Below, piece after piece: positions 32,855 to 52,245 of a stretch of 64,000 bases of DNA (the stretch's first letter is position 1; each line of letters begins with the position of its first letter). Source of the DNA: a bacterium BMS3Bbin08. GTDB taxonomy: Bacteria; Nitrospirota; Thermodesulfovibrionia; UBA6902; BMS3Bbin08. Where the stretch lies: contig BDTR01000032.1 of NCBI GenBank assembly GCA_002897775.1, positions 5,556-69,555 of the forward strand, read 5' to 3'. The translations under genes and the position numbers were made by a program. A model generated the notes under the pieces. The model saw only the letters and a list, made by a program, of their open reading frames with translations, had not been told where the DNA came from and did not search any database.

Positions 32855-32870
32855 ACATTGAAAAAAAGAG

Positions 32871-33362: not shown

Positions 33363-33379
33363 AAGGAGGATTAACTGGG

Positions 33380-34324: not shown

Positions 34325-34325
34325 A

Positions 34326-35108
34326 ATGAGAATTATAAAAGGGTTTAATATTAAGGCACTGCTTCTGGCAGGCTGTTTAATGTTGATTCCGGTTCCTGAC
34401 GCGTTTTCTGTTACTTTCAAAGTTTCTCCTGAACACATTGCCGTCGATTCTCTTTACCACGGGAGCAGGGTGTCGATAACCGGTGAAGTCGGGGCGGACG
34501 AAGAGGTTATTGTAAAGGTGACCTCAGAGGAACATAAGGTCGATCTGCGCAAAAAGGGTAAAAAGATGGGCCTGTTGTGGATGAATGTGGGAGAGTTGGA
34601 AATAGAGCCTGTATCCGATGTTTATCTTTTGTTTTCAACGCGTGATATCAATGAAATATTGAATCCGGAACAGCAGAACAGTTATGTAATAGGATACGGC
34701 TCCCTGAAGAAAATAGTGAGTTTAGTCCCTGTATCGGATGAAGCTGAAAAAGAAAAATGGTTTGATGAATTTATTAAATTCAAAGAGAATGACAATATAT
34801 ACGGCGTGTTCCCCGGAACCATAGATGTTATTTCATCCGGTGAAGAGAAAAAATTCAAGATCGATGTGGACTGGCCTTATCAGGCCCCGCCTCAGGAATA
34901 CAAGGTCAGCGCGTACACGGTGAAAAACGGTTTGATATCAGGCGAATCAAACGCCACGCTTATTGTTGAGAAAACGGGCGCACTCAGGTTTCTATCGGAA
35001 ATGGCTTTCAATAAGGCCGCGGTTTATGGAGTTGTCTCAATATTTATAGCCATATTTGCCGGGTTCATTGTAAGCATGGTCTTTAAAGGAGGCGGAGGCG
35101 GACACTAA
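34326..35108 (+). CDS. exported hypothetical protein with signal peptide and a C-terminal TM anchor plus a Gly tail
   Basis: Start moved to the ATG at 34326 (MRIIKGFNIKALLLAGCLMLIPVPDAFS) after AGGAGGG. Ends in a hydrophobic helix and GGGGGH. Confidence 0.5.
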   Translation: MRIIKGFNIKALLLAGCLMLIPVPDAFSVTFKVSPEHIAVDSLYHGSRVSITGEVGADEEVIVKVTSEEHKVDLRKKGKKMGLLWMNVGELEIEPVSDVYLLFSTRDINEILNPEQQNSYVIGYGSLKKIVSLVPVSDEAEKEKWFDEFIKFKENDNIYGVFPGTIDVISSGEEKKFKIDVDWPYQAPPQEYKVSAYTVKNGLISGESNATLIVEKTGALRFLSEMAFNKAAVYGVVSIFIAIFAGFIVSMVFKGGGGGH

Positions 35109-35213: not shown

Positions 35214-35603
35214 ATGGAAAAAGGAAAATATCTAATGATGGTGGTGGATGACGAACCCATAGTGGGAAAACGTCTGAAACAGATCTTCGAGAAAGCCGGC
35301 TATAATACGGAAGTATTTACAGGGGGCCGCTCAGCCCTTGAGGATCTGAAGAAAAAAAAATACGACATCGTTGTTACAGACCTGAGAATGGACGATGTGG
35401 ACGGCATAAAGATACTTGAGGAGGCAAGAGAGAAAAACCCGGACATTAAAGTAATAATTATTACCGCGTACGCGGAGATGGAAACTGCCAAAGAGGCCTT
35501 TAAAAAAGGGGCCTTTGATTTTATCGCCAAGCCTTTTAAAATAGACGAACTCAAGCAGGTAATAGCAAGGGCGGAAAAAGAACTTGCCAAGTCCAGGGAA
35601 TAA
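35214..35603 (+). CDS. single-domain response regulator (receiver), paralog
   Basis: 129 aa. MVVDDEPIVGKRLKQIF...DIVVTDLRMDDVDG...KVIIITAYA...AFDFIAKPF. Confidence 0.85.
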   Translation: MEKGKYLMMVVDDEPIVGKRLKQIFEKAGYNTEVFTGGRSALEDLKKKKYDIVVTDLRMDDVDGIKILEEAREKNPDIKVIIITAYAEMETAKEAFKKGAFDFIAKPFKIDELKQVIARAEKELAKSRE

Positions 35604-35811
35604 AAGGATCTTCTACCTGTCTTGTCCCCTCCCGCAGTTATTAATTATAATGTATATGAAAGCTGTTTTTTCGACTACCGTTCCTTACCACAGGGTGACC
35701 CGCTTAAAAGGAGTTGTGGTGTCATGATACGGCCCGCTTCTGATATCTTAAATTTTCCGAAGCTTTGAAAAAGAATACTATGAAGTTTATAATGAATTAG
35801 GAATAAAAGCC

Positions 35812-38469
35812 ATGTTCGGGAAGATAAGGAATTTTTTTAAAAAGAAACCGCAAAGGGTAGATAGGAAATTGCCTTTCAGGGAGGTTTTCAGCCGCTTCCG
35901 CCAAGTGCTTGACAGCAATAATCTCGCCCTTCAGATCATGGCGGATATGGGAGACAAGATGGGCGGTGATTATATATTTGACATAAACTACATAAAGAGC
36001 GCGTACGCGAAATTTGCCGACGCTGTCTTTAAATCCATCTACAACCTGAATGCGCTTGCGCAGAACAGGTACTTATATCTGCATGGGACTTATGAGAAGA
36101 TCAATTCCCAGATAAACAGGATATTGCAGGGCAAACCGGTCGCCGAAGCGCTTGAGCCTGTGCTTTTCTACAAGGACATTTCATGGGAATTCGCCGACGC
36201 AGTAGGCGGGAAAAACTCCGCTATAGCCACAATGTACAACAATCTTAAAATTAATGTGCCAGAAGGTTTCGCCATCACGACAGGCGCGTTCAAAAGGTTT
36301 GTCGAATATAACGGTATAGAAGAGAAGATCGAGGACCTGAAGCAGAAATACAAAAAGGCGTCGCAGCGGTCCCGGAAAGATGACATAATGACAACCGCAA
36401 CATTTGCGGAGGCCGGTGAACATGAGACCGCAAAAGAAATCGTGAGCGGTGTCGATTACATGAACGAGTCTTTTTTACAGGACATCCGGGAACTGTTCCT
36501 GAAGGGAGACATCCCTGCTGATATATCGGAAATTATAGAAGCTACCCTCGAGACGATGAAGATAAATCATGAAGGACCTTTATTTTTAGCGGTAAGAAGC
36601 AGCGCCGAAGAGGAGGATACCGAATTTTCCTTTGCTGGCCAGTTTGAAACTGAACTCAATGTGCCGGCTGAAAGGAAACCTGTTGAGGAGGCATATCGGA
36701 AAGTCCTTGCGAGTCTTTATTCGCGGAAAGCCATGGCCTATAAAGAACATATTATGCCCGAAGACAATTTGATTAATATGAGTGTCGGGTGTATGAAAAT
36801 GGTAAACGCCTCTGCAAGCGGCGTAATGAACACTATCGACCCCACTAATCTGAATAATGACGTAATCATAATAAATGCCAACTGGGGGCTGGGTAAGACG
36901 GTGGTTGATGGTTCTGTTGACGCTGACCACTTTATTATCTCGAAAGATGAGACTTACAGGGTCATTGACAGCAGGACAGGGAAAAAGAACGTCATGATAT
37001 CAGCGGACCCAAAAGGGGGGGTCAGCGAAATGGTGATATCCCCGGAAGAAGGGGAAAAACAGTGTCTCAACGAAGAACAGCTAAAAAAGCTCGCACATTA
37101 TGCAGTTACAATAGAGCATTATTTTAAAAAGCCACAGGATATAGAATGGGCTATTGACAGGAAGGGCGATATATTTATTGTTCAGTCAAGGCCGTTAAGG
37201 GTTTCGTCCAAGATACGGGCAGGGTCCAGGAACATATCTTGCAAGCTCGATAAATACGATGTAATTATGGAAGGCAAGGGCGTCATAGCCCAGCGCGGCA
37301 TCGGCTCTGGGAAGGTATTTGTGCTTAAAAGTCTGGATGACCTGAAAGACTTCGTAGCCGGTTCCATACTTGTGGCCAGGCATGATTCGTCACATTTTAT
37401 CAGAGTCATGCCCAAGGCGTCCGCGATTATTACCGACATGGGGACACCTACGAGCCACATGGCTAATATTGCCAGGGAGTTCCAGGTTCCGACAATAGTA
37501 AATACCGGCGACGGGACCACGGTCCTGAATCACGGGGAGGAAATCACGGTAGACGCCGATGACAACAGGATATATAAAGGGATAATCCAGGAACTGATGA
37601 AGTACAGGATATCATCGGACATCGATCTGAAGGGTACAAAGGAGTTCAGGCTTCTCAAGAAAATGCTCAGATATATAACACCTTTAAACCTGATCGACCC
37701 GTTACTGGAAAATTTCACACCGGAGGGCTGCAAAACCTTTCACGATATAATCAGGTTTATTCATGAAAAAGCCATCGCCGAGCTTGTCAATGTAAAGCGT
37801 TACGAGGGAAATATGTTAAAGGATAACGTAGCTATTAAACTCGATGTGAGCATACCGACAGGCATATTCATCATAGATATCGGCGGGGGGCTGGACCTCG
37901 TGAGCGGGAGCAGCATGGCGTCTTTTGATGAGATCACTTCTATCCCTTTTAAGTCAATCATGAGTGGAATGATGCATCCGGGAGTTTGGCACTCTGATTC
38001 CGTCTCAATGAGGGTCAATGATTTTATGTCGAGCATGATGAAGATGCCTGACATATCATCAATGCGTTACCTCGGCGATAACATCGCGGTAATTTCCCGT
38101 GAATATGTCAATATGAGCCTTAGGTTCGGCTATCACTTTAACATGCTTGACTGCTATTGCAGTGAAAATGTCAGGGACAACCATATCTACTTCCGGTTTG
38201 TCGGGGGAGCTACAGACATTTCCAAAAGGTCAAGGCGCGCAGAACTTCTGGCGATCATTCTCAAGGAATTCAACCTGATAGTGAATCTAAAGGGCGACCT
38301 GATTATAGGCCGCACCGGAAATGTGAGCCGGGCGGAAATGGAGGAGATTCTCGACAAACTCGGCAGGCTAATAGCCTATACCCGCCAGCTTGATGCCCTT
38401 CTCGATGATGATGAGACCGTTAACAGGTACGCCAGGCAATTCCTTGAAGAGAACTATACATTGGATTAG
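35812..38469 (+). CDS. PEP synthase / pyruvate-phosphate dikinase-like phosphotransferase: N-terminal unknown domain, PPDK_N ATP-grasp, swivel phospho-His domain, C-terminal unknown domain; no PEP/pyruvate TIM barrel
   Basis: 885 aa. ATP-grasp region (AVRSSAEEEDTEFSFAGQFETELNV). Mobile domain with the catalytic His (GTPTSHMANIAREFQVPTIV). N- and C-terminal regions about 130 and 300 aa long, homologous to those of the next gene. Confidence 0.72.
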   Translation: MFGKIRNFFKKKPQRVDRKLPFREVFSRFRQVLDSNNLALQIMADMGDKMGGDYIFDINYIKSAYAKFADAVFKSIYNLNALAQNRYLYLHGTYEKINSQINRILQGKPVAEALEPVLFYKDISWEFADAVGGKNSAIATMYNNLKINVPEGFAITTGAFKRFVEYNGIEEKIEDLKQKYKKASQRSRKDDIMTTATFAEAGEHETAKEIVSGVDYMNESFLQDIRELFLKGDIPADISEIIEATLETMKINHEGPLFLAVRSSAEEEDTEFSFAGQFETELNVPAERKPVEEAYRKVLASLYSRKAMAYKEHIMPEDNLINMSVGCMKMVNASASGVMNTIDPTNLNNDVIIINANWGLGKTVVDGSVDADHFIISKDETYRVIDSRTGKKNVMISADPKGGVSEMVISPEEGEKQCLNEEQLKKLAHYAVTIEHYFKKPQDIEWAIDRKGDIFIVQSRPLRVSSKIRAGSRNISCKLDKYDVIMEGKGVIAQRGIGSGKVFVLKSLDDLKDFVAGSILVARHDSSHFIRVMPKASAIITDMGTPTSHMANIAREFQVPTIVNTGDGTTVLNHGEEITVDADDNRIYKGIIQELMKYRISSDIDLKGTKEFRLLKKMLRYITPLNLIDPLLENFTPEGCKTFHDIIRFIHEKAIAELVNVKRYEGNMLKDNVAIKLDVSIPTGIFIIDIGGGLDLVSGSSMASFDEITSIPFKSIMSGMMHPGVWHSDSVSMRVNDFMSSMMKMPDISSMRYLGDNIAVISREYVNMSLRFGYHFNMLDCYCSENVRDNHIYFRFVGGATDISKRSRRAELLAIILKEFNLIVNLKGDLIIGRTGNVSRAEMEEILDKLGRLIAYTRQLDALLDDDETVNRYARQFLEENYTLD

Positions 38470-38528: not shown

Positions 38529-41129
38529 ATGGGCATTGATTCAATTATTAAAAAAACCGGAAATTTTTTAAAAAAATTCGACGGTATTCTGCATGGAAAG
38601 AGCAAGACATCTGAACTGGACCTTTTGATCCCCGGTGAGAATTATTTCAGGCTGAGGAGCAGGTATTACAGCTACAAGAGCCTTCTTTTAAAAAATAACG
38701 AGCTTCTGGATTCCCTGTCCGAAGTTGAAGAAGGTCTCGAATCAAAGACCCTGACTATTCAGAACTTCAGGGCGCATGTGGCGCGCATTTTCGATACGGC
38801 ATTCGGTTTTATTCAGAGCCTGAACGACATGGCTGACAATCGTTACCAGTATCTTTATGAAGTGCTGGAGCGAATCAGAGAAACAGCCCAGAGCCACTTT
38901 AAGAAAGAAACCGGGGGGAAAGCTTCGGACCTTGTTATCCCCATAGATAAAATAACGGCTGAACATTTCAAGGACGTCGGTGGTAAGGCGGGAAACCTCG
39001 GAGAGATAAGAAATATGTTAAGGCTGCCATCACCCGGGGGGTTTTCAATTACTGTACGGGCGTACAGGGAATTCATGTCTTACAATAACCTTGAGCAGGA
39101 GATTAACAGGCTCTCCGGCTCGGTGGACATGAACGACACTGCCGGGCTCGAAAATGTCTCCGAGGCGGTCCGGAAGTTGATCATGGGATCCCGGGTGCCG
39201 CCCGTGATAGAGGAAGCAATTGATGAAGAAGTGGGAAGGTTTGGAAAAGAGAAAAGCTTCTCTGTGAGGTCAAGCGCAGTCGGTGAAGACGGCAAGATAT
39301 CTTTCGCAGGACAATTCACAAGCGTTCTGAATGTGGGCGCGGGAGATATTACAAGCGCTTACAAAGAAGTGATAACGAGTAAATACGGAAGAAGGGCGGT
39401 ATTCTACCGGCAGGCAAAGGGAATAAAAGATAAAGATATTCCGATGGCTGTGCTTGTTCTTGAGATGATAGATTCGAAGTCGTCAGGGGTTCTTTATACT
39501 TTGAACCCAGGATATCCTGAAAGAGACGAGACCATAATCAGCTCGGTATGGGGACAGGGACAATACGCGGTCGGCGGAAAGATATCCCCGGACATGTTCA
39601 TACTTGACCGGCGAGACAATGGTAAAATCATAAGCAGTGTTGTGCCCGGGAAGAGTGTACAGCTTGCCATGAAACCGGACGGGGGAATGGAAGAGTTGCC
39701 GGTCCCGGAACGAGACCGTAATACGGCGAGTATTTCAGAAAGCAATATAAAAGAACTTTATCATTTTAGCCGAGTAATTGAAAGGCATTTCGGCGAACCG
39801 CAGGACATAGAGTGGACGGTCGATAAAAAGGGACTCATTCAGATACTCCAGACACGGCCCCTTCATATCAGGAGGGTCATACAGCCCTCGGCTCCTGACA
39901 CATTCGCCAAGAGGAAGGTCATGCTTTCACAGGGGGAAACGGCAAGCCGTGGAATCGCCTCGGGGCCGGTTTTTATCGTTGACAAATTCAGCCAGATAAA
40001 TGATTTCCCCCCGGGTGCCGTATTGATAGCGAGGAACTCGTCAAATGAATTTGTAAAGCTGATGCGTTCAGCCTCAGCCGTAGTTATAGAGACGGGCAGT
40101 ATTACAAGTCATCTTGCTACAGTGGCAAGAGAGTTTAATGTTCCGACGGTAGTCAACGTCAGGAATGTCCGGCAGATATTGAGAAACGAAAGGTCGGTTA
40201 CCGTAGACGCAAACTCCGGGCGGATTTACAGGGGGATGATCGAGGGTGTCGCCCGTCCCGTGCCGGATACCCGCGTTGCGGAAAACGTCTCTGCCGACGA
40301 AGGCATTATAAGGACGGTGATGAAATACATAACGCCCTTGAACCTTGTCACTCTCGATGAAAGCGAGATAACTCCGGAGGAATTCAAGACCGTGCACGAT
40401 ATAATAAGATACGTGCACGAGGTCTCCGTCAAGGAGATGTTTCGCATAGGAGAGCTTACCGAGGGGGAGGGTTCCACCCAGCAGCTTGTTTCAGACCTGA
40501 TTCCCATGTATTTCTATATTATTGATCTTGACGGCGGCGTTGTGGATGAAGCCAAATTCCTGAAAAAAATAGGCCCTGAACATATTACGTCGATCCCGTT
40601 AAAGGCGCTGTGGAAAGGCATGACCCATGAAGGGGTCAGGTGGTCGGGCCCTGTTGATATTGACATGGGAGGCCTTGCTTCGGTTATGGCCAGGTCTTTT
40701 GTGCGTACAGGTGTCACTGAAAAAGGGGGAAAGGCCTATGTTATTGTCACTGATCAGTATCTGAACCTGAGCGTAAAACTTGCATATCACTTTAGCGTGT
40801 TTGACGTCTTCTGCGGGGAGAGCTATATCAATAATTATATAAATTTCCGTTTTCAGGGAGGAGGCGCCAGCGCGGACGGAAGAATGCGGCGCGCCATGTT
40901 CCTCAGAGAGGTACTTGAATCTCTGGACTTCAGGGTGGAAGTCAAGGATGACATGGTCATTGCTGATATGAAAGGGGCGTCCAGGCAGGAGACAGAGGAA
41001 AGGCTGGATGTGCTGGGGCGATTGCTCGGCTGTTCAAGACAGCTTGATATGGCGATAAACAGTATGGAGGCAAAGGACTGGTATGTCAGGGCATTTTTAG
41101 AAGGCAATTATTCATTTGAACACAAATAA
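38529..41129 (+). CDS. PEP synthase-like phosphotransferase, tandem paralog (same four-part architecture)
   Basis: 866 aa. ATP-grasp (SVRSSAVGEDGKISFAGQFTSVLNV). Swivel His (GSITSHLATVAREFNVPTVV). Shared N-terminal motif NRYQYLY and a shared C-terminal domain. Confidence 0.72.
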   Translation: MGIDSIIKKTGNFLKKFDGILHGKSKTSELDLLIPGENYFRLRSRYYSYKSLLLKNNELLDSLSEVEEGLESKTLTIQNFRAHVARIFDTAFGFIQSLNDMADNRYQYLYEVLERIRETAQSHFKKETGGKASDLVIPIDKITAEHFKDVGGKAGNLGEIRNMLRLPSPGGFSITVRAYREFMSYNNLEQEINRLSGSVDMNDTAGLENVSEAVRKLIMGSRVPPVIEEAIDEEVGRFGKEKSFSVRSSAVGEDGKISFAGQFTSVLNVGAGDITSAYKEVITSKYGRRAVFYRQAKGIKDKDIPMAVLVLEMIDSKSSGVLYTLNPGYPERDETIISSVWGQGQYAVGGKISPDMFILDRRDNGKIISSVVPGKSVQLAMKPDGGMEELPVPERDRNTASISESNIKELYHFSRVIERHFGEPQDIEWTVDKKGLIQILQTRPLHIRRVIQPSAPDTFAKRKVMLSQGETASRGIASGPVFIVDKFSQINDFPPGAVLIARNSSNEFVKLMRSASAVVIETGSITSHLATVAREFNVPTVVNVRNVRQILRNERSVTVDANSGRIYRGMIEGVARPVPDTRVAENVSADEGIIRTVMKYITPLNLVTLDESEITPEEFKTVHDIIRYVHEVSVKEMFRIGELTEGEGSTQQLVSDLIPMYFYIIDLDGGVVDEAKFLKKIGPEHITSIPLKALWKGMTHEGVRWSGPVDIDMGGLASVMARSFVRTGVTEKGGKAYVIVTDQYLNLSVKLAYHFSVFDVFCGESYINNYINFRFQGGGASADGRMRRAMFLREVLESLDFRVEVKDDMVIADMKGASRQETEERLDVLGRLLGCSRQLDMAINSMEAKDWYVRAFLEGNYSFEHK

Positions 41130-41199: not shown

Positions 41200-42840
41200 A
41201 TGCTTAAAGCAAAGTTTGACAGGTTGATTAAAAACGCGGTCATAACCGATCAGGCGCTGGATGACGCGATAAAAGAGTCGGAGCGTTCGGGTAGCCATAT
41301 CGAAGAAACTCTGATGCGCAAGGGCATACCGAAACATGAAATATTAATATGCCTGTCAGAATATTACGGGTGCCCTTTCGTGGAATACGAAGAAGATATT
41401 ATGGTGTCACGAAATATCACAATGGGCCTTGATATGCAAAAGCTGAAAAGTGACCTCTGGTTCCCCCTTTCCGCCAGAAATGGCCGGGCTGAGGTGATAG
41501 TTTCTGATCCGGAAAACCGCGCCGTTGCCGATGATGTTAAAAAGGGCCTTAATGTTGATAGAATCAAATTTTTTCTCGCTCTCCCTTCCGACATAGTCAG
41601 AATAATCGAGAACAACCAGGACGTGAATCCAGGTTTTTCCGCCGAGGCAGGGAGGACCCCCCTTGCCATGGTCAGGACATTTCTCGCGGAGAGGCGTTCA
41701 CTTCTGGCCTGCATCAGGACGTCTCTGGCCAAGGCAAGGACGGGCCTTGCCTTTATCCGCACCGGCATTGCCTTTATTACCGTTGCCCTTGTCCTGTTCC
41801 GGCTTTTCGGCATCGGATATTTGACAATTCTTGAAGCGGTGCTTTTGCTGGCGGGTCTCTTCATGGCGGTTGACGGATTTCTATGGTATATCCCGGCCAG
41901 GCAAAGAGGGAAAAGAATATTTGATTGCAATTGCACGGAACTGACATGGGGAACGAGTGTGCTTACTATTTCAAACATATTGGAGAGCCCTTCTTTTGAG
42001 CGTTCCGGTATTGTGGAGGGGGCAACAAAGCTTCGAAAAGATTGGAGGGGTCTTTCTCCTGTTATGAGGCGGAGGTTCCTTGCCTGTGACAGAACGGACC
42101 TTGCCGAAGAAAGGACGTCTCTCGCCTGTTACAGGACAATGATGGCACGTGCGCGTACAGGGCTCGCATTCACACGAACGGGAATCGCCTTCATAGGTAT
42201 AGGCATCGCTTTGCTGAGACAGTTTCATGCGGGTGTGTGGACTATGTTTGATGCCCTGCTTATTATTATGGGCTTTGCTATGGTGACGGAGGGTTTTTAC
42301 TGGTATTTCCCGGGCCGTAGGGCAGGCGGTAAAGGTTTTGCGTCGGTCAGGAATGTCTATCGCAAACGCAGCATCTGGGAAATTGTCTTTCCCCCTGTTC
42401 ACAGAGATCCCGGCTCTGAGGATGACAGTTATCCTCACATTCCGGTGACACGATCTCAGTCCCCCGGGATATGGGGCACTACAGGCCTTGCCCTTGAACG
42501 TACTCTCCTTGCGGAAAGGCGCAATGTAATGGCGCGGCTGCGTACTGTAATGGCCCGCTCAAGGACGGGGCTGGCTTTTGTACGGACAGGGATGAGTATC
42601 TCTGCCGTGGGCGCCGGTCTTCTGGTATATTTCGGCGTCGGACTTCTTACATGGACGATATTTGATTCCGTTCTTATTTTAAGCGGGCTGGCGCTGGTTG
42701 TGGACGGTCTTTACTGGCATATCCCGGCGGACAAAATAAGGAGGCAGTTTCCGTACTGTTTCGGTGATATGGAAATTACCTTGCCTGATTACGGCAGGCC
42801 TGCCCGTTACTGGAAAAAAGTGGTTTTCAATCATGACTGA
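41200..42840 (+). CDS. membrane protein: N-terminal T2SS-E N-terminal-like (GSPII_E_N) cytoplasmic domain plus three DUF202/YidH-like repeats
   Basis: 546 aa. The N-terminal domain of about 150 aa resembles the GspE/PilB N1 regulatory domain. Three repeats of the ERxxLAxxRTxLAxxRTGLAFxRTG motif, each followed by two TM helices. Confidence 0.55.
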   Translation: MLKAKFDRLIKNAVITDQALDDAIKESERSGSHIEETLMRKGIPKHEILICLSEYYGCPFVEYEEDIMVSRNITMGLDMQKLKSDLWFPLSARNGRAEVIVSDPENRAVADDVKKGLNVDRIKFFLALPSDIVRIIENNQDVNPGFSAEAGRTPLAMVRTFLAERRSLLACIRTSLAKARTGLAFIRTGIAFITVALVLFRLFGIGYLTILEAVLLLAGLFMAVDGFLWYIPARQRGKRIFDCNCTELTWGTSVLTISNILESPSFERSGIVEGATKLRKDWRGLSPVMRRRFLACDRTDLAEERTSLACYRTMMARARTGLAFTRTGIAFIGIGIALLRQFHAGVWTMFDALLIIMGFAMVTEGFYWYFPGRRAGGKGFASVRNVYRKRSIWEIVFPPVHRDPGSEDDSYPHIPVTRSQSPGIWGTTGLALERTLLAERRNVMARLRTVMARSRTGLAFVRTGMSISAVGAGLLVYFGVGLLTWTIFDSVLILSGLALVVDGLYWHIPADKIRRQFPYCFGDMEITLPDYGRPARYWKKVVFNHD

Positions 42841-44086
42841 ATACGATCGCGCTGAAAATAGTTCTGACATTTCAATGGACGGGGACCGTCCGGCAACTGG
42901 CGTGGGGAGATATCGTCTGTTGGCAGACTGGGGTGTTATAGCTGAGGATAAACTCCGTGAAGCCAATGATTCAGCTGTTGCCAGAGGGTTGGCGCTGGAA
43001 ACGGTGCTCACAAGAGATTATCATGTTCCCCGTCATGCCCTTTTAAAGGCGCTCTCGGAGTTGTACCGCTGTCCTTATGTCGAATATGACGAGAGGCTGC
43101 CGATTCCCCCGGAACTCATATCCGGACTTGACGGAGACAGGCTCTCTCTCAGCAGATGGTTTCCGATCATCAAAGATGGAGACACGGCTGTAATAGCGGT
43201 GAATGATCCCTGTGACCGGGCTGTTTTAAGCGAGATAAAGGAATTCATCGGAGCTAAAAAGTACGAGATCCGGGTGGCGCTTGAAGACGATATTCAATGG
43301 TTTATCCGGGATTTTCTGCATACAAAACCTGGATATCTCATCGGGACAGAGAGGACAGGTCTTGCCTTTTGGCGTAATACAATGGCCCATTGGAGAACGA
43401 GGCTCGCCTGTTACAGGAATGATCTCGCCAGGGCCAGAACCAATCTTGCGTTCCTGAGATGGGGGCTGGGAACTGTAGCTCTCTCTGATGCGCTTATGCG
43501 CGCACAGAAATTCCATGTGCCGGTCTATCTTTACTGGGGCATGATGCTCACCGGATTTTCCCTGGTAATATTCGGCCTGTTCGGGTATACGAAAATCAGG
43601 AGGGCAAGAATGTCTCCTCCGGGACAGCAGACCCTTGTTGAGGTAACATCAGCCGTACTGAATTTCCTCGAGAATTATCATTTTATCGAAAACACCGGCA
43701 CAGTAGTGCACACAAAGCAAACAATGCTCGCGCGACTCGGCGATTTCCTTGCCGGTCACTGTACGATTCTCTATCCTTTGCCGGCCAGCAGGGAACGCAC
43801 ACAGTTGGCCCGCGAAAGGAATGTCCTTGCGGGCCAGCGGACAGTGGCCGCTTGCTATCGGACCATCTATGCCCGGGCGAGGACAGGACTTGCATTTATA
43901 AGGACCGGCGTTTCATTCTTGGGCCTCGCCCTTGGTCTTATCAGCTATTTCGGCTTCAGTTTACTGACCATATTCGATTTGATGCTCATAGTCGGGGGGG
44001 TATTGTTTGTGGTGGATGGTGCACTGTGGTATCTGCCGGTGAGAAAGGAACAGGCTGAGACCCCGAGATGTCCTGTGCCTACATAA
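42833..44086 (+). CDS. membrane protein paralog: T2SS-E N-terminal-like domain plus two DUF202/YidH-like repeats
   Basis: Start placed at the ATG at 42833 inside ATGACTGA, which overlaps the upstream stop. 417 aa. The N-terminal domain is homologous to the upstream gene (CPYVEYDERLPIPPELISGLD...). Two ER..RTGLAF repeats. The ORF-track start at 42764 would overlap the upstream gene by 77 nt. Confidence 0.55.
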   Translation: MTEYDRAENSSDISMDGDRPATGVGRYRLLADWGVIAEDKLREANDSAVARGLALETVLTRDYHVPRHALLKALSELYRCPYVEYDERLPIPPELISGLDGDRLSLSRWFPIIKDGDTAVIAVNDPCDRAVLSEIKEFIGAKKYEIRVALEDDIQWFIRDFLHTKPGYLIGTERTGLAFWRNTMAHWRTRLACYRNDLARARTNLAFLRWGLGTVALSDALMRAQKFHVPVYLYWGMMLTGFSLVIFGLFGYTKIRRARMSPPGQQTLVEVTSAVLNFLENYHFIENTGTVVHTKQTMLARLGDFLAGHCTILYPLPASRERTQLARERNVLAGQRTVAACYRTIYARARTGLAFIRTGVSFLGLALGLISYFGFSLLTIFDLMLIVGGVLFVVDGALWYLPVRKEQAETPRCPVPT

Positions 44087-44320: not shown

Positions 44321-46048
44321 ATGCAATTAAAAATCTGGCATAAAATGATTATCGGCATAGCCATCCCTTCCTTAATTGCCGTTCTGGGTGGATTTCTGAC
44401 CTACATATACATAAATAATGTTACTAACAGGCAGCGTTTTGTCGAGATCGCGGACGACCTGAAAGAAAGCGCTTTAGAAATCAGACGAAACGAAAAAAAC
44501 TTTCTCCATTACAAGAATGCCGAGAGTCTGAAGAATCTCGATATCGCGGTCTCGGCTTTCACCGCGTCGATCAGGGATATTTCATCGGTGGCCATTGAAG
44601 AAATAGGGAAAGAAGATTTCTCGGTACTTAATGAGACGATCCAAACATACCGGGATCTCATGAATGACCTGTACAAAAGTTATCGACGGGAATCCGAGGT
44701 CACCGAAAAGGTGAGAGCAGAGGGCAGAAAACTGGAAGATTTTGTGGCAAAGGGGGAACATGCATCTGATCTTACGACAAACTTCGTTTTTAATTTAAGG
44801 CTCATGGAAAAAAATTATATGCTTTTTCGTGATAATAAATCCTACGATGAGTTAGAACTCAAGCTCGGGGAATTAGGGAATTTTATCCCTTTCTGTGAAG
44901 AGTGCTTCCCTTACACAACGGCAATACAGACCCTTATGGATACTTATAAAAAAAGCAATTCGATAGTAAGCGATTTGCAGGTCATGGGAAACAAACTTGA
45001 AGAAACGACAGGGAAAATAGCTGACCGTGAAAGGTTGATGATAAAGTCTTTTCTTGCGCATACCCAGCGTCTTATTCTAATAGCATTTGCCCTGCTGAGT
45101 ATATTAGGCCCTTTATTTATATATAAGACCGCGAAAATAATAGTCGCCCCGATTAACAGGCTTGCCGCGATCACGCAAAAAATAGCCGAGGGAGACTTAT
45201 CTCTTAGAGCGCCCCTCAAGGAACACGACGAAACCTACTCACTGGCCGTGTCTTTCAATACAATGCTTGACCATCTTCAGCTTACTCACGAGTCTCTTGG
45301 GAGAAGCCTGGAGCTACTGCGTGAAAAGCAGGCCCAGCTTGTGGAAGCTGGAAAACTCGCGTCCCTCGGGGTTCTTACCGCCGGAGTGGCGCACGAGTTG
45401 ACAAACCCGCTCAATAATATATCCATGGTTGCCCAGACATATATCGAGCTCTATGACAATCTTCCCAGGGACAAACGGATCGGCTTTATGGAAACGGTGG
45501 AAAAAGAGACCGAGAGGACAAGAAAGATCGTCAATAATCTTTTGAGTTTCTCCAAACCGAAGAAAGCCAACCTGAAGGAAGCTTATGTCAATGTCATAAT
45601 ATTGAACGCCCTGGATTTCATGCAAAACATGATCCACGTTTCCAATATAGATACCAAATTAAACCTTGGGGATAATCTTCCCCACATTCTCATCGATGAA
45701 TCCCAGATAATTCAGGTGTTGATAAACCTTATAACAAATGCTGTTCATGCAATGCCTCCCGGCGGGTTATTGACCCTCTCAACAGGGCCTGGAAAAGAGA
45801 ATTTTATCGAGATCAAGGTGAAAGATACGGGGAAGGGCATTCCCCCCGAGTATTTGGGTCACATTTTTGATCCTTTTTTCAGCACAAAGGGAGTTGAAGG
45901 GACAGGTCTCGGACTATCGGTAAGTTATGGTATAATAAAAACCCATAAAGGGAACATCACTGTAGAAAGTACGGTCGGAGAGGGTACTGTTTTTACCATT
46001 GAACTGCCCGTATATAAAGGAGAAGGAATCAATCATGGAAAGCTATAG
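44321..46048 (+). CDS. sensor histidine kinase, paralog of 28616..30385
   Basis: 575 aa. Same N-terminus MQLKIWHKMIIGIAIPS and the sensor motif RRNEKNFLHYKN. Near-identical HAMP/HisKA stretch LRAPLKEHDETYSLAVSFNTMLDHLQLTHESL...GVAHELTNPLNN. Confidence 0.85.
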   Translation: MQLKIWHKMIIGIAIPSLIAVLGGFLTYIYINNVTNRQRFVEIADDLKESALEIRRNEKNFLHYKNAESLKNLDIAVSAFTASIRDISSVAIEEIGKEDFSVLNETIQTYRDLMNDLYKSYRRESEVTEKVRAEGRKLEDFVAKGEHASDLTTNFVFNLRLMEKNYMLFRDNKSYDELELKLGELGNFIPFCEECFPYTTAIQTLMDTYKKSNSIVSDLQVMGNKLEETTGKIADRERLMIKSFLAHTQRLILIAFALLSILGPLFIYKTAKIIVAPINRLAAITQKIAEGDLSLRAPLKEHDETYSLAVSFNTMLDHLQLTHESLGRSLELLREKQAQLVEAGKLASLGVLTAGVAHELTNPLNNISMVAQTYIELYDNLPRDKRIGFMETVEKETERTRKIVNNLLSFSKPKKANLKEAYVNVIILNALDFMQNMIHVSNIDTKLNLGDNLPHILIDESQIIQVLINLITNAVHAMPPGGLLTLSTGPGKENFIEIKVKDTGKGIPPEYLGHIFDPFFSTKGVEGTGLGLSVSYGIIKTHKGNITVESTVGEGTVFTIELPVYKGEGINHGKL

Positions 46049-46403
46049 GATTATGGTTATTGACGATGAAAAGGTTGTCGGAGATATGGCGAGGATGACT
46101 CTTGAACAGGAAGGTTATACGGTAGAGACCTTTTTAAGCGCGGAACCCGCGCTGGAGAGATTAAAGGAAGAGAAATTCAACGTAGTCGTCACAGACTATA
46201 AGATGAAAGGCATTGACGGTATGGAGGTCCTCAGGATTGTAAAGGAGCTATATCCGGAAACGGTAGTAATAATGATCACGGCATTTGCCAACCTGGATGC
46301 CGCGATAGAAGCACTGCGCTCGGATGTCCATGACTTTTTTCCGAAACCCGTCAAAATAAAGGAATTGAAAGCCTCCATCAAACGCGCATTAAGTAAGGAC
46401 TGA
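46035..46403 (+). CDS. single-domain response regulator (receiver), overlaps the kinase stop by 14 nt
   Basis: Start at ATG 46035 (MESYRIMVIDDEKVVGD...) after AAGGAGAAGG. VVVTDYKMKGIDG...VVIMITAF...DFFPKP. Confidence 0.85.
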   Translation: MESYRIMVIDDEKVVGDMARMTLEQEGYTVETFLSAEPALERLKEEKFNVVVTDYKMKGIDGMEVLRIVKELYPETVVIMITAFANLDAAIEALRSDVHDFFPKPVKIKELKASIKRALSKD

Positions 46404-46572: not shown

Positions 46573-46896
46573 TTACAACAGGGTTTTCAGGAACTCCCTG
46601 TATTCCAAAGGCGGTTCTGTTATCTGCATTCCAATGCTCAATGTTGAATGCGTTGTGGCTTTATAAAACCACTTGACCTTGCAGTTTAGAATGAGCTTCT
46701 CTCCTGAAGGAAGACGGAATTTAAGCTTGACAGGTTTTTCACGGGCAATGCCCGGATCGATTCCAGGGGTCGCGTGCAGAATTATAAATATACCCTCTTC
46801 TGAGACGTTTGCTATTATTCCGGTATAATTCCCATTATCCATGACAAGCTCGGCCTCTGAGCTTATAACCGTTCTCTGGAAACGTCTCTGTTTCAT
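46573..46896 (-). CDS. PilZ-domain protein (putative c-di-GMP receptor)
   Basis: 107 aa. QRRFQR (RxxxR) and NVSEEG (D/NxSxxG) motifs. Confidence 0.6.
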   Translation of the reverse strand: MKQRRFQRTVISSEAELVMDNGNYTGIIANVSEEGIFIILHATPGIDPGIAREKPVKLKFRLPSGEKLILNCKVKWFYKATTHSTLSIGMQITEPPLEYREFLKTLL

Positions 46897-48315: not shown

Positions 48316-48591
48316 TCATTTGGTGACCATGTCAGCCATCATCGGTCCGAGCATGTCCTTTACCATGTCGGTAAAATCATCTGCTCTTATTAATGAGATA
48401 CAGCCGACCTTGTCGTCCTTTCCCCACGTTATAACGATCAGTTTGTCACCGGGCTTAATATTCGCTTTTTCCCTTAATTCCTTCGGGAGTATCATCTGCC
48501 CCCTCTCGTCTATGCTTATTACTGATTCCACATTGCAGCAACTCACTGCCTTATTCGACGGATGACAGCCGCCCTTGCTCTTCTTAGCCAT
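48316..48591 (-). CDS. AbrB/MazE/SpoVT-family DNA-binding protein with a Cys-rich N-terminal extension
   Basis: 91 aa. Swapped-hairpin motif IDERGQMILPKELREKANIKPGDKL. N-terminus GGCHPSNKAVSCCNV. Confidence 0.6.
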   Translation of the reverse strand: MAKKSKGGCHPSNKAVSCCNVESVISIDERGQMILPKELREKANIKPGDKLIVITWGKDDKVGCISLIRADDFTDMVKDMLGPMMADMVTK

Positions 48592-48834: not shown

Positions 48835-49608
48835 ATGGTAGTCATGATGAACGGGTTTAGAGTTGTGATAATTGTTCTGTGCGCGGTCTTAATGTCGTCT
48901 TTTTCCGCGTTCGCCCAGAAAGGGCTTGATGTGCGGGAGATAGTTGACAAGGTCGACAAACTCTACCGGAGCGATACAAGCCGGAGTGAAGTGGAGATGA
49001 CAGTTGTATCGGAGCACTGGGAGCGGACGTTTACCATGAATATCTGGACAGAAGGCATGGACAGGACATTCATCTATATTACAGGCCCCAGGAAGGACGC
49101 CGGCATTTCGACTCTCCGCATTGGAAGCGAGATGTGGAATTATTTGCCAAAGATCAACAAGGTGATGAAGGTGCCTCCGTCAATGATGATGAGTTCATGG
49201 ATGGGTTCGGACTTTACAAACGACGACCTTGTAAAAGAAAGCTCAATGATCAAGGACTATAACTTAAGATTTATAACACCGGCTGACGCAGAGACTGATA
49301 ACTATTATATTGAGCTGATACCCAAAAAAGATATTCCAATTGTTTGGACAAAGATTATTCTTATAGTGCGGAAGAAAGACTACATACCCATTGAGCAGTC
49401 CTATTTTGACGAAAAGGGGCGGAAAATGAGAATAATGACTTTTAGTGAAATAAAGAAATTCGGCAGCAGAAGCCTGCCTTCCGTATTGGAGATGAGACCT
49501 TTGAACAAGCCCAAAAAAAAGACGGTTATACGTTATAAGGATCTGGGATTTGATGTAAAACTGAAACCGGACGTATTTACGTTGCGGAATCTGCAAAAAA
49601 AACGGTGA
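48835..49608 (+). CDS. LolA-like outer-membrane lipoprotein-sorting family protein (periplasmic, signal peptide)
   Basis: Start placed at the ATG at 48835 (MVVMMNGFRVVIIVLCAVLMSSFSAFAQKG). LolA-like beta-barrel region. Followed by two FtsX permeases and an ABC ATPase. Confidence 0.55.
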   Translation: MVVMMNGFRVVIIVLCAVLMSSFSAFAQKGLDVREIVDKVDKLYRSDTSRSEVEMTVVSEHWERTFTMNIWTEGMDRTFIYITGPRKDAGISTLRIGSEMWNYLPKINKVMKVPPSMMMSSWMGSDFTNDDLVKESSMIKDYNLRFITPADAETDNYYIELIPKKDIPIVWTKIILIVRKKDYIPIEQSYFDEKGRKMRIMTFSEIKKFGSRSLPSVLEMRPLNKPKKKTVIRYKDLGFDVKLKPDVFTLRNLQKKR

Positions 49609-49680
49609 AGTTATTGAGTAATTAAGTTATTAAGTCATTTTACTTAATGACTCGCTGACAGAATGACTTAATGACTATTT
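49609..49680. repeat. AT-rich word-repeat spacer (LolA-like to FtsX), same family
   Basis: agttattgagtaattaagttattaagtcattttacttaatgactcgctgacagaatgacttaatgactattt. Confidence 0.7.
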
Positions 49681-50905
49681 GGTTGAAGTGATCATTCTAA
49701 AGATAGCGTTCAGAAATATATTCCGCCATAAAAAGCGTTCCGCTCTTACGGGTCTGATGATGGCCGGAGGGTGTGCATTGTTCGCGCTTTCCATAGGAAT
49801 GGTTGACGGAGGATACGGCAATCTCATCGACATGTTCACGCGTGACCACACCGGGCATATTCAGGTGCATAAAAAAGGGTATCTTGATAAGCCTTCGATA
49901 TATAGTACCATCGATAACCCTGATTCCGTCGGCAAAAAGATACAGTCGGTCGCTCATGTCCAGTCATGGGCGCCCAGGGTTTATACTCCTGCGCTTGCTT
50001 TTGCGGGCAAAAAAACAACCAATGTCCGGGTCGTCGGCATAGATCCGATCAGAGAGGCAAGAACAACACGGATAAAATACAAAGTTGACATAGGGCGGTT
50101 CATCTCCGAAGCGCCTTTAAATGAGGCGGTAATAAGTGACAGGCTCGCGCGGCTCCTTAAAATCGATCTCAATGGAGAAATAGCCCTGATCACTCAGGGC
50201 GCGGACGGTTCCATAGCAAACGAACTGTTCACTGTTGTCGGTATTACAGGTAAGTCCGGGGAAACGTCGGGAACCTCAACATGTTACATGCATATAAAAA
50301 CCGCTCAGGACTTTCTTTCGCTTGGAGGCGGGGTACATGAGATAGCGGTTGTGCTTACAGATCAGGCGCTTACAATGAAGACGGTAGGGTTGATAAAAAG
50401 CGCTCTTCAGGATCCGTCCCTTGAAGTTGATCCGTGGCAGGTGGTTGAGAGCCAGTTTTACAGGGCAATGAAGGCGGACATCAAGGGTAGCTGGTATACC
50501 ATAGTGATCTTTACGATAATCATTGCCGTAGGAGTGCTGAACACAGTACTTATGATAATACTTGAAAGGACCCGGGAGTTCGGGGTCTTAAAGGCGCTCG
50601 GTACGAGACCGCTTCAGATATTTATGCTTATTGTGTATGAGACGGTCTTTCTTGCGGTACTGAGTATAATTATCGGTACTGCAGTTGGAATGTCCGCCAA
50701 CTGGTGGTTCCATGAATACGGGATAACCCTTGCAAACCCTATTGAATACGGCGGCTACTTTTTTGACACAATAACAGCAAAGATAACGCTCCGGTCCCTG
50801 GTCCTGCCGGCCATGATTATTTTTGGCACTGCTTTGATCGTAAGCATATGGCCTGCCATAAGGGCTGCACGAATAATACCTGTAAAGGCAATGAGGTCAA
50901 ATTAA
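49679..50905 (+). CDS. ABC transporter permease, FtsX/LolC/MacB family
   Basis: 408 aa. N-terminal TM, large periplasmic domain and a C-terminal three-TM FtsX domain. Confidence 0.8.
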   Translation: MVEVIILKIAFRNIFRHKKRSALTGLMMAGGCALFALSIGMVDGGYGNLIDMFTRDHTGHIQVHKKGYLDKPSIYSTIDNPDSVGKKIQSVAHVQSWAPRVYTPALAFAGKKTTNVRVVGIDPIREARTTRIKYKVDIGRFISEAPLNEAVISDRLARLLKIDLNGEIALITQGADGSIANELFTVVGITGKSGETSGTSTCYMHIKTAQDFLSLGGGVHEIAVVLTDQALTMKTVGLIKSALQDPSLEVDPWQVVESQFYRAMKADIKGSWYTIVIFTIIIAVGVLNTVLMIILERTREFGVLKALGTRPLQIFMLIVYETVFLAVLSIIIGTAVGMSANWWFHEYGITLANPIEYGGYFFDTITAKITLRSLVLPAMIIFGTALIVSIWPAIRAARIIPVKAMRSN

Positions 50906-50908
50906 CCT

Positions 50909-52231: not shown

Positions 52232-52245
52232 CTAAAGGAGGAATA

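Follow-up and report, generated by a model that had tools for sequence, protein, structure and literature searches.

A conserved bacterial gene pair joining MshEN-like domains to arginine-striped DUF202-type membrane modules, with a possible role as an anion conduit

Introduction

Functional knowledge of the DUF202 family comes only from the eukaryotic polyphosphate channel. VTC is the only known coupled polyphosphate polymerase-translocase, and DUF202 is its channel domain. The channel is a heteropentamer of DUF202 subunits with TM1 around the pore; the ring consists of three Vtc1 chains, Vtc3 or Vtc2, and Vtc4, which also carries DUF202. In Vtc1, TM1 carries Lys24 and Arg31 at a distance of seven residues, and these create the positive rings of the pore vestibule; TM3 contributes to the contacts between subunits. 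DUF202 proteins are common among bacteria, and our literature search found no study establishing a function for any bacterial member. The single-domain bacterial member YidH of Escherichia coli was an unconfirmed hit in a D-alanine export screen.

The MshEN (GSPII) domain is found at the N-terminus of the secretion and pilus ATPases MshE, PilB, PilF, and GspE (XpsE). According to the accessible part of the 2016 MshEN paper, c-di-GMP-binding members have two tandem 24-residue motifs, RLGxx(L/V/I)(L/V/I)xxG(L/V/I)(L/V/I)xxxxLxxxLxxQ, with 5 residues between them. The fusion partners named in that part are ATPase, glycosyltransferase, and "other", and DUF202 attachment is not mentioned there.

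A third related system is the "nitrate cluster" of Desulfovibrio, DVU0251-DVU0245 / Dde_0597-Dde_0605, which controls nitrate sensitivity (Korte et al., 2014; PMC4001038). It includes a TauE protein, a HAMP histidine kinase, a receiver, and a PPDK_N/mobile-His protein, and its authors suggested that the effect reflects thiosulfate uptake. Here, we describe a locus and compare it with all three systems.

Results and Discussion

A conserved overlapping gene pair

The window is a 64,000-nucleotide stretch of contig BDTR01000032.1 from BMS3Bbin08, an uncultured sulfur-cycle bacterium. Two adjoining genes, here called A and B, lie where the initial annotation had placed their open reading frames:

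41200..42840, plus strand: gene A, 546 aa; MshEN-like domain, then three DUF202-type hairpin modules (open reading frame and Pfam)
42833..44086, plus strand: gene B, 417 aa; MshEN-like domain, then two DUF202-type hairpin modules
42833..42840, plus strand: overlap of the A stop and the B start, ATGACTGA, 8 nt

The frame of gene B is open from 42764, has an ATG at 42833, and ends at 44086. The junction reads ...caatcATGACTGAat..., with the ATG of B at 42833-42835 and the TGA of A at 42838-42840, and the start of B is therefore inside the last codons of A. The annotated start of the second gene within ATGACTGA is thus borne out, and about 25 related loci also have an ATG or GTG overlapping the last codons of A, at −13, −10, −7, or −3 from the A stop. 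The exact start of gene B is uncertain because its first ~20 residues are not conserved; it is called as 417 aa in three assemblies.

A search for this architecture in other genomes recovered the pair in 30 related loci from several phyla. A adjoins B in all of them (one A is cut by a contig end), and every full-length pair keeps three modules in A and two in B, that is, five modules per A:B pair. These pairs come from Nitrospirota, Desulfobacterota, Dissulfuribacterales, and Proteobacteria MAGs. One related locus has two A paralogues ahead of B. Protein A has a 100% identical counterpart in a Nitrospirae MAG and more than 1000 homologues. The constant adjacency and the conserved stop/start overlap fit a fixed 1:1 co-production of A and B.

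The two open reading frames overlap in different frames and B resembles a shortened A, as might be expected if they were one gene broken by a frameshift or a functionless chance repeat. The conservation data refute this reading, and we consider its probability negligible. The two-gene order recurs in all 30 loci, with the frame offset and overlapping start in about 25; the A and B families are each 60-75% identical across their full length; and three independent assemblies agree on the same two genes. Our literature search turned up no characterised protein with the MshEN-DUF202 architecture, in line with the initial annotation, which knew of none.

N-terminal MshEN-like domains

Both proteins open with a domain of the MshEN family:

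41200..41619, plus strand: A residues 1-140, cytoplasmic MshEN/GSPII fold (helical bundle and alpha/beta subdomain), c-di-GMP motif degenerate (PilF match, Foldseek)
42896..43327, plus strand: B residues 22-165, MshEN/GSPII-like domain (Pfam 48.1 bits; PilF/PilB N-domains in the PDB)

The Pfam MshEN model (PF05157, cut-off 23.1 bits) matches A with 38.8 bits and B with 48.1 bits, both above threshold. With phmmer against the PDB, the A domain matches the Thermus PilF GSPII domains (E 5e-16), and a PDB sequence search with B finds the N-domains of PilF and PilB. In the AlphaFold monomer model of A (pLDDT 80, pTM 0.72; pLDDT 72 for B), residues 1-140 show the GSPII fold with its N-terminal helical bundle and alpha/beta subdomain, and Foldseek gives target-normalised TM-scores of 0.64-0.73 to the N-domains of PilF-GSPIIB, MshE, and XpsE (8pdk, 5htl, 2d28). 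The closest solved relative of the A domain is the c-di-GMP-bound PilF GSPII-B domain, and the PilB(N)-PilZ complex is also a structural neighbour. The CP(F/Y)VEY segment where the two subdomains join is conserved in secretion/pilus ATPase N-domains and in A/B (CPFVEYEE and CPYVEYDE). Pfam, PDB sequence matches, and Foldseek thus agree with the proposal that the proteins begin with a GspE/PilB N1-like domain carrying CP(F/Y)VEY(E/D).

The fold, the Pfam family, and the N-terminal position are common to A/B and the N-domains of MshE, PilB, PilF, and GspE (XpsE). In the secretion/pilus ATPases, however, an ATPase domain follows MshEN, whereas membrane modules take its place in A/B. Neither Pfam nor NCBIfam gave a family match to a secretion-ATPase domain (T2SSE, Walker motifs) in A or B, and TIGR02538 covers model positions 4-138 only, at 26-30 bits against a cut-off of 675. 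The tandem c-di-GMP motif is also not conserved. The RLG triads read A-K-F and H-I-E in A, and Ala4, Ser27, Glu35, and Tyr55 stand at PilF Lys167, Gln190, Gly198, and Gln218, with Ser27 and Tyr55 at the two Gln positions. In B, the motif spacing is altered and Glu56 occupies the motif-II Gly position; almost all members of the A family, and all of the B family, have a Glu here. The NCBIfam c-di-GMP motif model (NF053729, cut-off 38) scores A at 21.7 bits, below cut-off, and gives no match for B. Judging from these substitutions, the MshEN domain of A/B is not likely to sense c-di-GMP. In A/B, this fold has lost its c-di-GMP motif and is linked to a membrane module, a new context for it.

DUF202-type modules and the arginine stripe

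The remainder of each protein is built from tandem hairpin modules, and A ends in a conserved tail:

41644..41907, plus strand: module A1, residues 149-236; Arg heptads R152-R187 run into TM1, then a turn and TM2 ending WYxP; helices 152-203 and 209-237
42061..42324, plus strand: module A2, residues 288-375; Arg heptads R291-R326, TM hairpin; helices 287-342 and 348-386
42469..42735, plus strand: module A3, residues 424-512; Arg heptads R434-R462, TM hairpin; helices 422-478 and 483-516
42736..42837, plus strand: conserved C-terminal tail of A (QFPYCFGDMEI..PDYG..W..VVF), predicted disordered, pLDDT 30-37
43343..43606, plus strand: module B1, residues 171-258; Arg heptads R174-R209; helices 173-224 and 231-259
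43787..44050, plus strand: module B2, residues 319-406; Arg heptads R322-R357, TM hairpin; helices 319-373 and 379-408

Pfam DUF202 (PF02656, cut-off 23.4 bits) matches A with 46.5 bits over three stretches, the best being 312-362 in A2. B scores 18.8 bits over two stretches, below the cut-off, and many B homologues carry PF02656. The five modules align with one another almost gaplessly at 30-52% identity, B1 being the most divergent, with a weakly hydrophobic first helix. The annotated three and two copies of a DUF202/YidH motif with TM hairpins are therefore supported, by the Pfam score for A and by the gapless alignment of the B modules to those of A. The motif itself, RTGLAF at A180, A319, A455, and B350 and RTNLAF at B202, is present and repeated as described. 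However, it is only part of a longer, exact arginine heptad stripe, which is much longer still in single-module relatives.

Each module pairs a long helix of ~55 residues with a subsequent return helix. On the long helix, which merges into the first membrane helix, 5-6 Arg residues recur at an exact spacing of 7 (consensus R-T-x-L-A-x-x). The five modules together have 29 Arg at this spacing. The lag-7 autocorrelation is 16 in A against ~4 at other lags; a run of at least four Arg at spacing 7 occurs in 3.6% of A shuffles, and A has three runs of 5-6. The repeat in A is far beyond chance. The pattern is conserved in the more than 1000 homologues, and in every module the Arg of each heptad hardly varies across five to six turns. 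In the AlphaFold monomers, each of the five modules has its Arg-heptad segment and TM1 in one unbroken helix, 52-57 residues long. Some relatives have a single module with a very long (R-T-x-L-A-x-x)n stalk and are genuine DUF202 proteins, which makes the stripe part of the structural make-up of the DUF202 family. For these relatives, homo-oligomers are plausible. In another relative, P0296, a hairpin module is fused to a receiver domain.

The A/B modules and the VTC ring belong to the same Pfam family and have an E/x-R-T-x-L-(A/S)-W motif where the pore-lining helix begins. A profile of the A/B modules finds yeast Vtc1 chains weakly (E 1.5-3, not significant alone). This alignment places "AraRTgLAFiRtG" on Vtc1 "ANERTFLSWLNFT" and the penultimate heptad Arg on Vtc1 Arg31. 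The basic residues one heptad apart that line the cytoplasmic vestibule in Vtc1 (Lys24 and Arg31) correspond to a stripe extended to 5-6 heptads in A/B. VTC assembles five DUF202 units from unlike subunits, whereas A/B hold 3+2 modules in tandem within two polypeptides. YidH shares the family and the ERTxLAWxRT motif (two heptads) but is one ~115-aa module with three membrane helices and no cytoplasmic domain. Each A/B module has two membrane helices, in contrast to three in Vtc1 and canonical DUF202; no third hydrophobic helix precedes the next module in the sequences or the AlphaFold models. The packing must therefore differ from that of VTC. A/B are bacterial and have an MshEN-like N-terminal domain, whereas VTC is eukaryotic and has an SPX and a catalytic tunnel domain; no Pfam or NCBIfam match to SPX or to the triphosphate-tunnel domain was found in A, B, or the neighbouring genes.

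The layout of A/B may be compared with that of CorA-type pentameric 2-TM channels: a cytoplasmic alpha/beta domain, a very long stalk helix that extends as the TM1 lining the pore, and, after a short outer loop, a returning TM2. CorA conducts cations and has a GMN loop; the long helix of A/B is instead Arg-lined. No sequence or fold match between CorA and A/B was found, and Foldseek with the A model gave no channel-like match for the membrane part.

The tail of A, in which Gln516, Pro518, Tyr519, Cys520, Glu525, Pro529, Tyr531, Gly532, Trp538, and Phe543 are invariant across the family, is possibly a docking motif.

Neighbouring genes

The pair is embedded in a cluster of genes on the same strand:

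31300..35108, plus strand: TauE permease, Usp, a 163-aa protein without family match, second TauE, and Alph_Pro_TM
35214..35603, plus strand: second receiver-only response regulator, directly upstream of the dikinase genes; 43% identical to the downstream regulator
35812..38469, plus strand: dikinase-like protein 1, 885 aa; N-terminal coil, PPDK_N ATP-grasp, swivel phospho-His domain (TSH 547-549), and family-specific C-terminal domain of ~290 aa
38529..41129, plus strand: dikinase-like protein 2, 866 aa, paralogue of protein 1; TSH 526-528; C-terminal regions 32% identical
44321..46048, plus strand: membrane histidine kinase (sensor region, HAMP, HisKA, HATPase_c), directly after B in most related loci
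46035..46403, plus strand: receiver-only response regulator, 122 aa; its start overlaps the kinase stop by 14 nt

Dikinase-like proteins 1 and 2 match PF01326 (1e-84 and 6e-83) and PF00391 (2e-18 and 8e-19), and Pfam gave no match to PEP-utilizers_C, the PEP/pyruvate-binding TIM barrel. The PRK06464 scores, 351 and 337 bits, fall short of the 598 cut-off, and the matches reach only to about position 470 of the 798 in the model. The C-terminal 290 aa are conserved and Arg/His-rich, and have no Pfam or PDB match. A link of A/B to this upstream PpsA-like pair had been suggested; it is real but partial, since an orthologue follows the receiver gene in ~14 of 30 loci and most related loci have only one such gene. 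The tie to the HAMP histidine kinase and the receiver-only regulator is tighter. The 122-aa regulator, 70-88% identical across related loci, is the most conserved gene of the cluster. Many Nitrospirota relatives have the order Usp-like, TauE, Alph_Pro_TM, tandem USP, and then A. In some genomes, A/B stand alone beside housekeeping genes, without the kinase, regulator, or dikinase-like gene.

All four gene types of the Desulfovibrio nitrate cluster lie within 31300-46403 here, by composition against Table 3 of PMC4001038. The kinase-regulator-dikinase order is common to both, as is a PPDK_N and mobile-His protein without the PEP/pyruvate barrel, and a Desulfovibrionaceae MAG has homologues of the receiver and of the dikinase-like protein with its special C-terminal domain. 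In contrast, the published gene table contains no MshEN-DUF202 protein, and the PtxB-like protein and phosphatase of the nitrate cluster are absent at the A/B locus. Through the A/B family, a kinase/receiver/dikinase-like module conserved in sulfate reducers is connected with further membrane components. Loss of the compositionally matching module gives nitrate-resistant Desulfovibrio, which is relevant to oil-field souring control.

Proposed function of the A:B pair

We propose that a 1:1 complex of A and B forms a pseudo-pentameric, Arg-lined anion conduit resembling the five DUF202 subunits of VTC and subject to regulation, and we give this reading a probability of roughly 0.4. A and B would be paralogous inner-membrane proteins whose coupled production leads to 1:1 assembly, bringing five DUF202-type modules together. 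In each module, the long helix with one Arg per heptad would continue as TM1, and the second helix would return to the cytoplasm. By homology with VTC, the five long helices may ring a central, strongly electropositive funnel and pore that binds and passes an anion. Because the models are monomers, the pentamer-like assembly is proposed from the module count and from homology. Candidate anions are a sulfur oxyanion such as thiosulfate or sulfite, from the genomic context, and a phosphate polymer, from homology. The sulfur-oxyanion link is indirect because the published nitrate-cluster table lacks A/B and A/B stand alone near housekeeping genes in some genomes. The two cytoplasmic MshEN-like domains, having lost the c-di-GMP signature, could gate the funnel or dock partners, and the pore might be under the control of its genetic neighbours, namely the HAMP kinase, the CheY-like regulator, and the phospho-His dikinase-like enzymes. 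Against a conduit, a helix whose surface is hydrophobic apart from a narrow Arg/Thr stripe could instead rest along the membrane plane or bind acidic partners, the first helix of B1 is poorly hydrophobic, and one locus has two A paralogues before B.

A/B may instead be a membrane signalling scaffold, with anchored MshEN-like docking domains and Arg-striped helices as rigid or lipid-binding stalks. Such a scaffold would bring in or control the receiver, the dikinase-like enzyme, or the TauE permease, in the way that GspE/PilB N-domains dock to GspL or PilZ. MshEN/GSPII N-domains are known docking modules, with PilB(N)-PilZ and the XpsE N-domain as structural neighbours here. The C-terminal tails of A and B, conserved yet disordered, resemble docking peptides, and the tight synteny with kinase, regulator, and dikinase-like gene and the receiver fusion in P0296 also point this way. 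However, a scaffold does not account for the exact 3+2 count or the near-invariant Arg per heptad, and in some genomes its presumed partners are missing; we consider it possible but unlikely. As for c-di-GMP receptors, whose MshEN domains would bind the messenger, as those of MshE and PilF-GSPIIB do, and so switch the membrane part, the family membership, the c-di-GMP-bound closest relative, the weak motif match in A, and a PilZ gene downstream on the other strand are suggestive. The replaced PilF positions, the Glu at the motif-II Gly, and the sub-threshold or absent NF053729 matches argue against such receptors, and the PilZ gene is not conserved in related loci, leaving them little chance.

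We also judge improbable a bacterial translocase for polyphosphate or another linear polyanion, like the VTC ring, which phospho-histidine of the dikinase-like proteins would feed or energise. The role of DUF202 in VTC, the long electropositive conduit that five modules with 5-6 Arg rings would make, and the retained catalytic TSH histidine and conserved Arg/His-rich C-terminal domain of the dikinase-like proteins are in its favour. However, the SPX and triphosphate-tunnel domains are missing, many loci lack the dikinase-like gene, the Pfam and PDB searches gave no tie of its C-terminal domain to polyphosphate, and no polyphosphate gene lies beside the A/B cluster. The boldest form, very improbable in our estimate, would make A:B the first bacterial counterpart of the VTC ring, a hetero-dimeric, pseudo-pentameric conduit lined by ~29 Arg and threading polyphosphate or a polysulfur oxyanion over the inner membrane, with the dikinases and their unique C-terminal domain as coupled polymerase or energiser. 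If true, sulfur-cycling anaerobes would have a new way of depositing polyanions outside the cytoplasm.

The A/B family is a natural experiment, with five DUF202 modules in two polypeptides, an exaggerated Arg stripe, and an attached regulatory domain. If the pseudo-pentameric conduit is correct, the stoichiometry and pore-lining face of bacterial DUF202 become directly testable, and the VTC channel principle would extend to bacteria.

Promoter and terminator signals

The best sigma-70-like promoter match of the cluster lies ahead of the dikinase genes:

35765..35793, plus strand: TTGAAA-17-TATAAT, upstream of dikinase gene 1 (consensus match only)

The intergenic gaps before 46403 contain no strong plus-strand terminator-like site. 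One weak terminator-like site is located between the two dikinase genes, at 38487-38503.

A conserved, coupled gene pair

Genes A and B overlap on the plus strand. Each encodes an N-terminal MshEN/GSPII domain followed by membrane hairpin modules of the DUF202 type, three in A and two in B.

41200..42840, plus strand: gene A, ORF of 546 aa
42833..44086, plus strand: gene B, ORF of 417 aa (mechanical ORF from 42764, ATG at 42833)

The initial annotation placed the start of B inside the stop region of A, and the junction caatcATGACTGAat is exactly as it described: the ATG of B lies at 42833 and the TGA of A at 42838-42840, giving an 8-nt overlap. Identical DNA with the same two gene calls is found in three independent public assemblies, including the Nitrospirae MAG GCA_002897755.1 (contig BDTC01000060). 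Among contigs sampled at one genome per species, A is followed by B in 30 of 30 loci (one A is cut by the contig end), which belong to Nitrospirota, Desulfobacterota, Dissulfuribacterales and a few Gammaproteobacteria and Burkholderiales MAGs. The module count is three plus two in every full-length pair, the exceptions being frameshifted or truncated assemblies. An ATG or GTG overlaps the last codons of A (at −13, −10, −7 or −3) in about 25 loci. A single broken gene is ruled out by the A-B order, the 3+2 count and the conserved overlapping start, and the 30 loci hold two genes instead of fragments of one. Judged by these start positions, the coupled translation proposed for the pair is a conserved trait. 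One Nitrospirota MAG (L007) carries two tandem A-type paralogues (8269-9900 and 10001-11698), about 60% identical to the A of the window, before a single B.

More than 1000 homologues were retrieved for A and more than 1000 for B. The best 120 are all full-length, about 59-75% identical and mostly from Nitrospirota (Thermodesulfovibrionales, Dissulfurispiraceae), and their database names are just "DUF202 domain-containing", "YidH" or "type II secretion protein". The family is compact, since only 425 representatives match in a library clustered at 50% identity. The claim that no protein of MshEN-DUF202 architecture has been characterised agrees with the literature searched, in which no description was found; that on YidH yielded an unconfirmed hit in a D-alanine export screen and nothing else useful. 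The A/B family is uncharacterised and made of known domains.

Arginine-heptad hairpin modules

Three stretches of A match DUF202 (PF02656) in Pfam at 46.5 bits (cut-off 23.4), whereas two stretches of B match below the cut-off at 18.8 bits, in line with the copy numbers first proposed. The five modules can be aligned with a single two-residue indel, at 30-52% identity, and B1 is the outlier.

Modules and their heptad arginines (residue numbers within each protein)
A149-236, module A1: Arg 152/159/166/173/180/187
A288-375, module A2: Arg 291/298/305/312/319/326
A424-512, module A3: Arg 434/441/448/455/462
B171-258, module B1: Arg 174/181/188/195/202/209
B319-406, module B2: Arg 322/329/336/343/350/357

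The motif ER-x2-LA-x2-RT..., initially read as the DUF202 signature, is present, but it is enclosed by an exact heptad repeat, R-T-x-(L/M)-A-x-x, and is better described as a stripe of heptad-spaced arginines on a DUF202 variant with two helices. The modules contain 29 arginines at a spacing of seven. Arginine autocorrelation in A is 16 at lag 7 versus about 4 at other lags, and even a single run of four arginines at this spacing occurs in only 3.6% of shuffles of A. In the AlphaFold models, the arginine heptads merge with the following hydrophobic stretch into a single uninterrupted helix, 52-57 residues long in all five modules; the chain then turns tightly into a return helix of 29-39 residues that ends in W-Y-x-P. 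Canonical DUF202 (Vtc1) has three membrane helices, whereas each A/B module is predicted to have two, with both ends cytoplasmic, which makes tandem repetition possible.

The heptad arginines, the RTGLAF turn region, the C-terminal tails and two acidic residues per return helix (among them E212/D225, D351/E364, D489/D502 and D382/D395) are invariant or nearly so in the A and B families. The conserved tails are predicted to be disordered and contain cysteine (A 513-546, QFPYCFGDMEI...PDYG...W; B 403-417, PVRKEQAE.PRCPVP); together with C243 of A, they could be docking, redox or metal sites.

The arginine stripe appears to be a general, undescribed elaboration of bacterial DUF202, because it also occurs in single-module, receiver-fused and MshEN plus one-module relatives. 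In the representative library, seven proteins (P0317, P0306, P0312, P0338, P0347, P0354 and P0378) have one hairpin module after (R-T-x-L-A-x-x)n, with up to about 25 heptads, and P0317, P0306, P0312 and P0347 all exceed the DUF202 threshold. Such a repeat would form a very long stalk, coiled-coil-like and striped with arginine, of which we found no description in the literature searched. P0313 combines MshEN with one module. P0296 and P0308 join an arginine-heptad hairpin to a C-terminal response-regulator receiver domain (Pfam), which independently supports a functional link of the hairpin module with receiver proteins.

A degenerate MshEN domain

The assignment of a T2SS-E N-terminal-like domain holds for both proteins. 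A and B match MshEN (PF05157) at 38.8 and 48.1 bits (cut-off 23.1), and sequence searches of the PDB matched their N-terminal 140-165 residues to GSPII domains of Thermus PilF (E 5e-16 for A). Target TM-scores of 0.64-0.73 were obtained when the AlphaFold model of A (pLDDT 80, pTM 0.72) was superposed on PilF-GSPIIB, MshE-N and XpsE-N. No ATPase domain follows in A or B, and the PilB equivalog model aligned at its first 138 positions alone.

The reading of this fold needs a correction as regards c-di-GMP. The c-di-GMP-binding signature is RLGxxLLxxGLLxxxxLxxxLxxQ in two copies. A4, S27, E35 and Y55 of A align with K167, Q190, G198 and Q218 of the c-di-GMP-binding PilF GSPII-B; deposited PilF structures carry mutations at three of these, K167, Q190 and Q218. 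At the position of the motif-II glycine, glutamate is conserved to at least 90% among A proteins and without exception among B proteins (E56). The NCBI c-di-GMP motif model scored 21.7 bits for A (cut-off 38) and gave no match for B. We rejected c-di-GMP sensing as the primary reading, as the motif residues are replaced family-wide. By its residues the domain is best described as a degenerate MshEN and is probably not a c-di-GMP sensor.

A structural neighbour of PilB(N)-PilZ type suggested a tie to the PilZ gene on the opposite strand just after the cluster; this was rejected, with the PilZ family recurring in 0 of the 30 related loci.

46573..46896, minus strand: stand-alone PilZ protein, 107 aa (PF07238, 8e-13)

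Gene neighbourhood and dikinase-like proteins

The gene order in the window is TauE, Usp, a 163-aa protein, TauE, Alph_Pro_TM, receiver, two dikinase-like genes (DK1, DK2), A, B, HAMP histidine kinase and receiver. Relatives usually show the order (Usp-like, TauE, Alph_Pro_TM, tandem USP) A, B, kinase, receiver and dikinase-like. The suggested co-occurrence with PpsA-like genes is real but partial, at about 14 of the 30 loci, and A-B is found alone in a few genomes. The receiver is the best conserved gene of the cluster (70-88% identical across loci). Its start in the window overlaps the kinase stop by 14 nt (46035..46048), a length shared by the A-B overlap in most relatives.

35812..38469: DK1; conserved C-terminal domain at 37582..38466
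38529..41129: DK2; conserved C-terminal domain at 40221..41126

Both proteins comprise an N-terminal coil, a PPDK_N ATP-grasp domain and a swivel domain that carries the catalytic histidine (TSH), and neither has the PEP/pyruvate barrel. They probably act as ATP-driven phospho-His transferases. The C-terminal domain of about 290 aa matched no Pfam family, and single-sequence and profile searches of the PDB yielded just E 0.18 over 30 residues. Its homologues are named only "pyruvate, water dikinase" or hypothetical. It contains invariant His, Asp and Arg residues, including HDIxRFxHE and GYHFN..DCYCS...NHIYFRFxGGATD..RSRR, and has the look of a catalytic or substrate domain still to be characterised.

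Three loci (L003, L006, L025) have genes for an ArnT/PMT-like membrane glycosyltransferase and a canonical YidH-type DUF202 protein (132 aa, HMANERTFLAWIRTG) downstream of the dikinase-like gene. Beyond the cluster in the window lie a MazE-like antitoxin gene (about 48316..48591, minus strand), then TP_0789-like lipoprotein and MacB/FtsX-type ABC transporter genes (48835..52800, plus strand), apparently unrelated to it. PADLOC gave no match to anti-phage defence for A, B or the dikinase-like proteins.

Comparison with VTC and proposed function

Vtc1 and Vtc4 have DUF202 as their membrane domain. In the yeast VTC structure, five DUF202 subunits (three Vtc1, Vtc3 and Vtc4) surround a pore lined by TM1; K24 and R31 of Vtc1 form two basic rings, one heptad apart, in the cytoplasmic vestibule, and there is also an E30-R83 inter-subunit lock. 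A profile of the A/B modules matched Vtc1 chains weakly (E 1.5-3), with "ARaRTgLAFiRTG" over "ANERTFLSWLNFT". This places the penultimate heptad arginine at R31, so that the A/B family would lengthen the basic stripe of VTC, from two turns to five or six. What this analysis chiefly adds is the invariant sum of five modules, which suggests a 1:1 A:B complex that would mimic the VTC pentamer. The structural models cover A and B as monomers, and Foldseek gave no channel-like match for the membrane part; the A/B modules also lack the third helix, which in VTC forms part of the subunit interface.

Our preferred reading, at a probability of roughly 0.4, is that A and B would form a coupled 1:1 pseudo-pentameric, arginine-lined anion conduit controlled by the adjoining two-component and phospho-His proteins. 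The main rival, unlikely in our judgement, is a non-conducting signalling scaffold. VTC is a polyphosphate polymerase-translocase; for A/B, we consider a polyphosphate translocase coupled to the dikinase-like enzymes very improbable.

For the anion conduit, a candidate substrate class comes from the Desulfovibrio "nitrate cluster" (DVU0251-0245 / Dde_0597-0605; Korte et al., 2014, PMC4001038). This cluster encodes a TauE-like permease, a hypothetical protein, a PtxB-like protein, a HAMP histidine kinase, a receiver-only regulator, a PPDK_N/mobile-domain protein and a phosphatase. Transposon insertions in its genes conferred strong nitrate resistance, and the authors proposed thiosulfate uptake with leakage of nitrate (PMC4001038). 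No later work on it was found in the literature searched. The cluster shares its gene set and its order of kinase, receiver and dikinase with the flanks of A/B; A and B themselves are not listed in the published cluster, and the link, drawn from gene descriptions, is one of composition. By this analogy, it points to sulfur oxyanions as candidate substrates, in agreement with the occurrence of A/B in sulfate-reducing and sulfur-disproportionating taxa.

A Desulfovibrionaceae MAG (L034, 1-4295) encodes a dikinase-like protein, a receiver (44% identical) and a second dikinase-like protein. The latter is 32% identical to DK1 (BLASTP, 6e-75), with the coil, His domain and C-terminal domain aligned and the ATP-grasp core unaligned. 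Its precomputed Pfam matches are PEP-utilizers alone, with no PPDK_N, and it could be a degenerate paralogue, comparable to the DK1/DK2 pair of the window.
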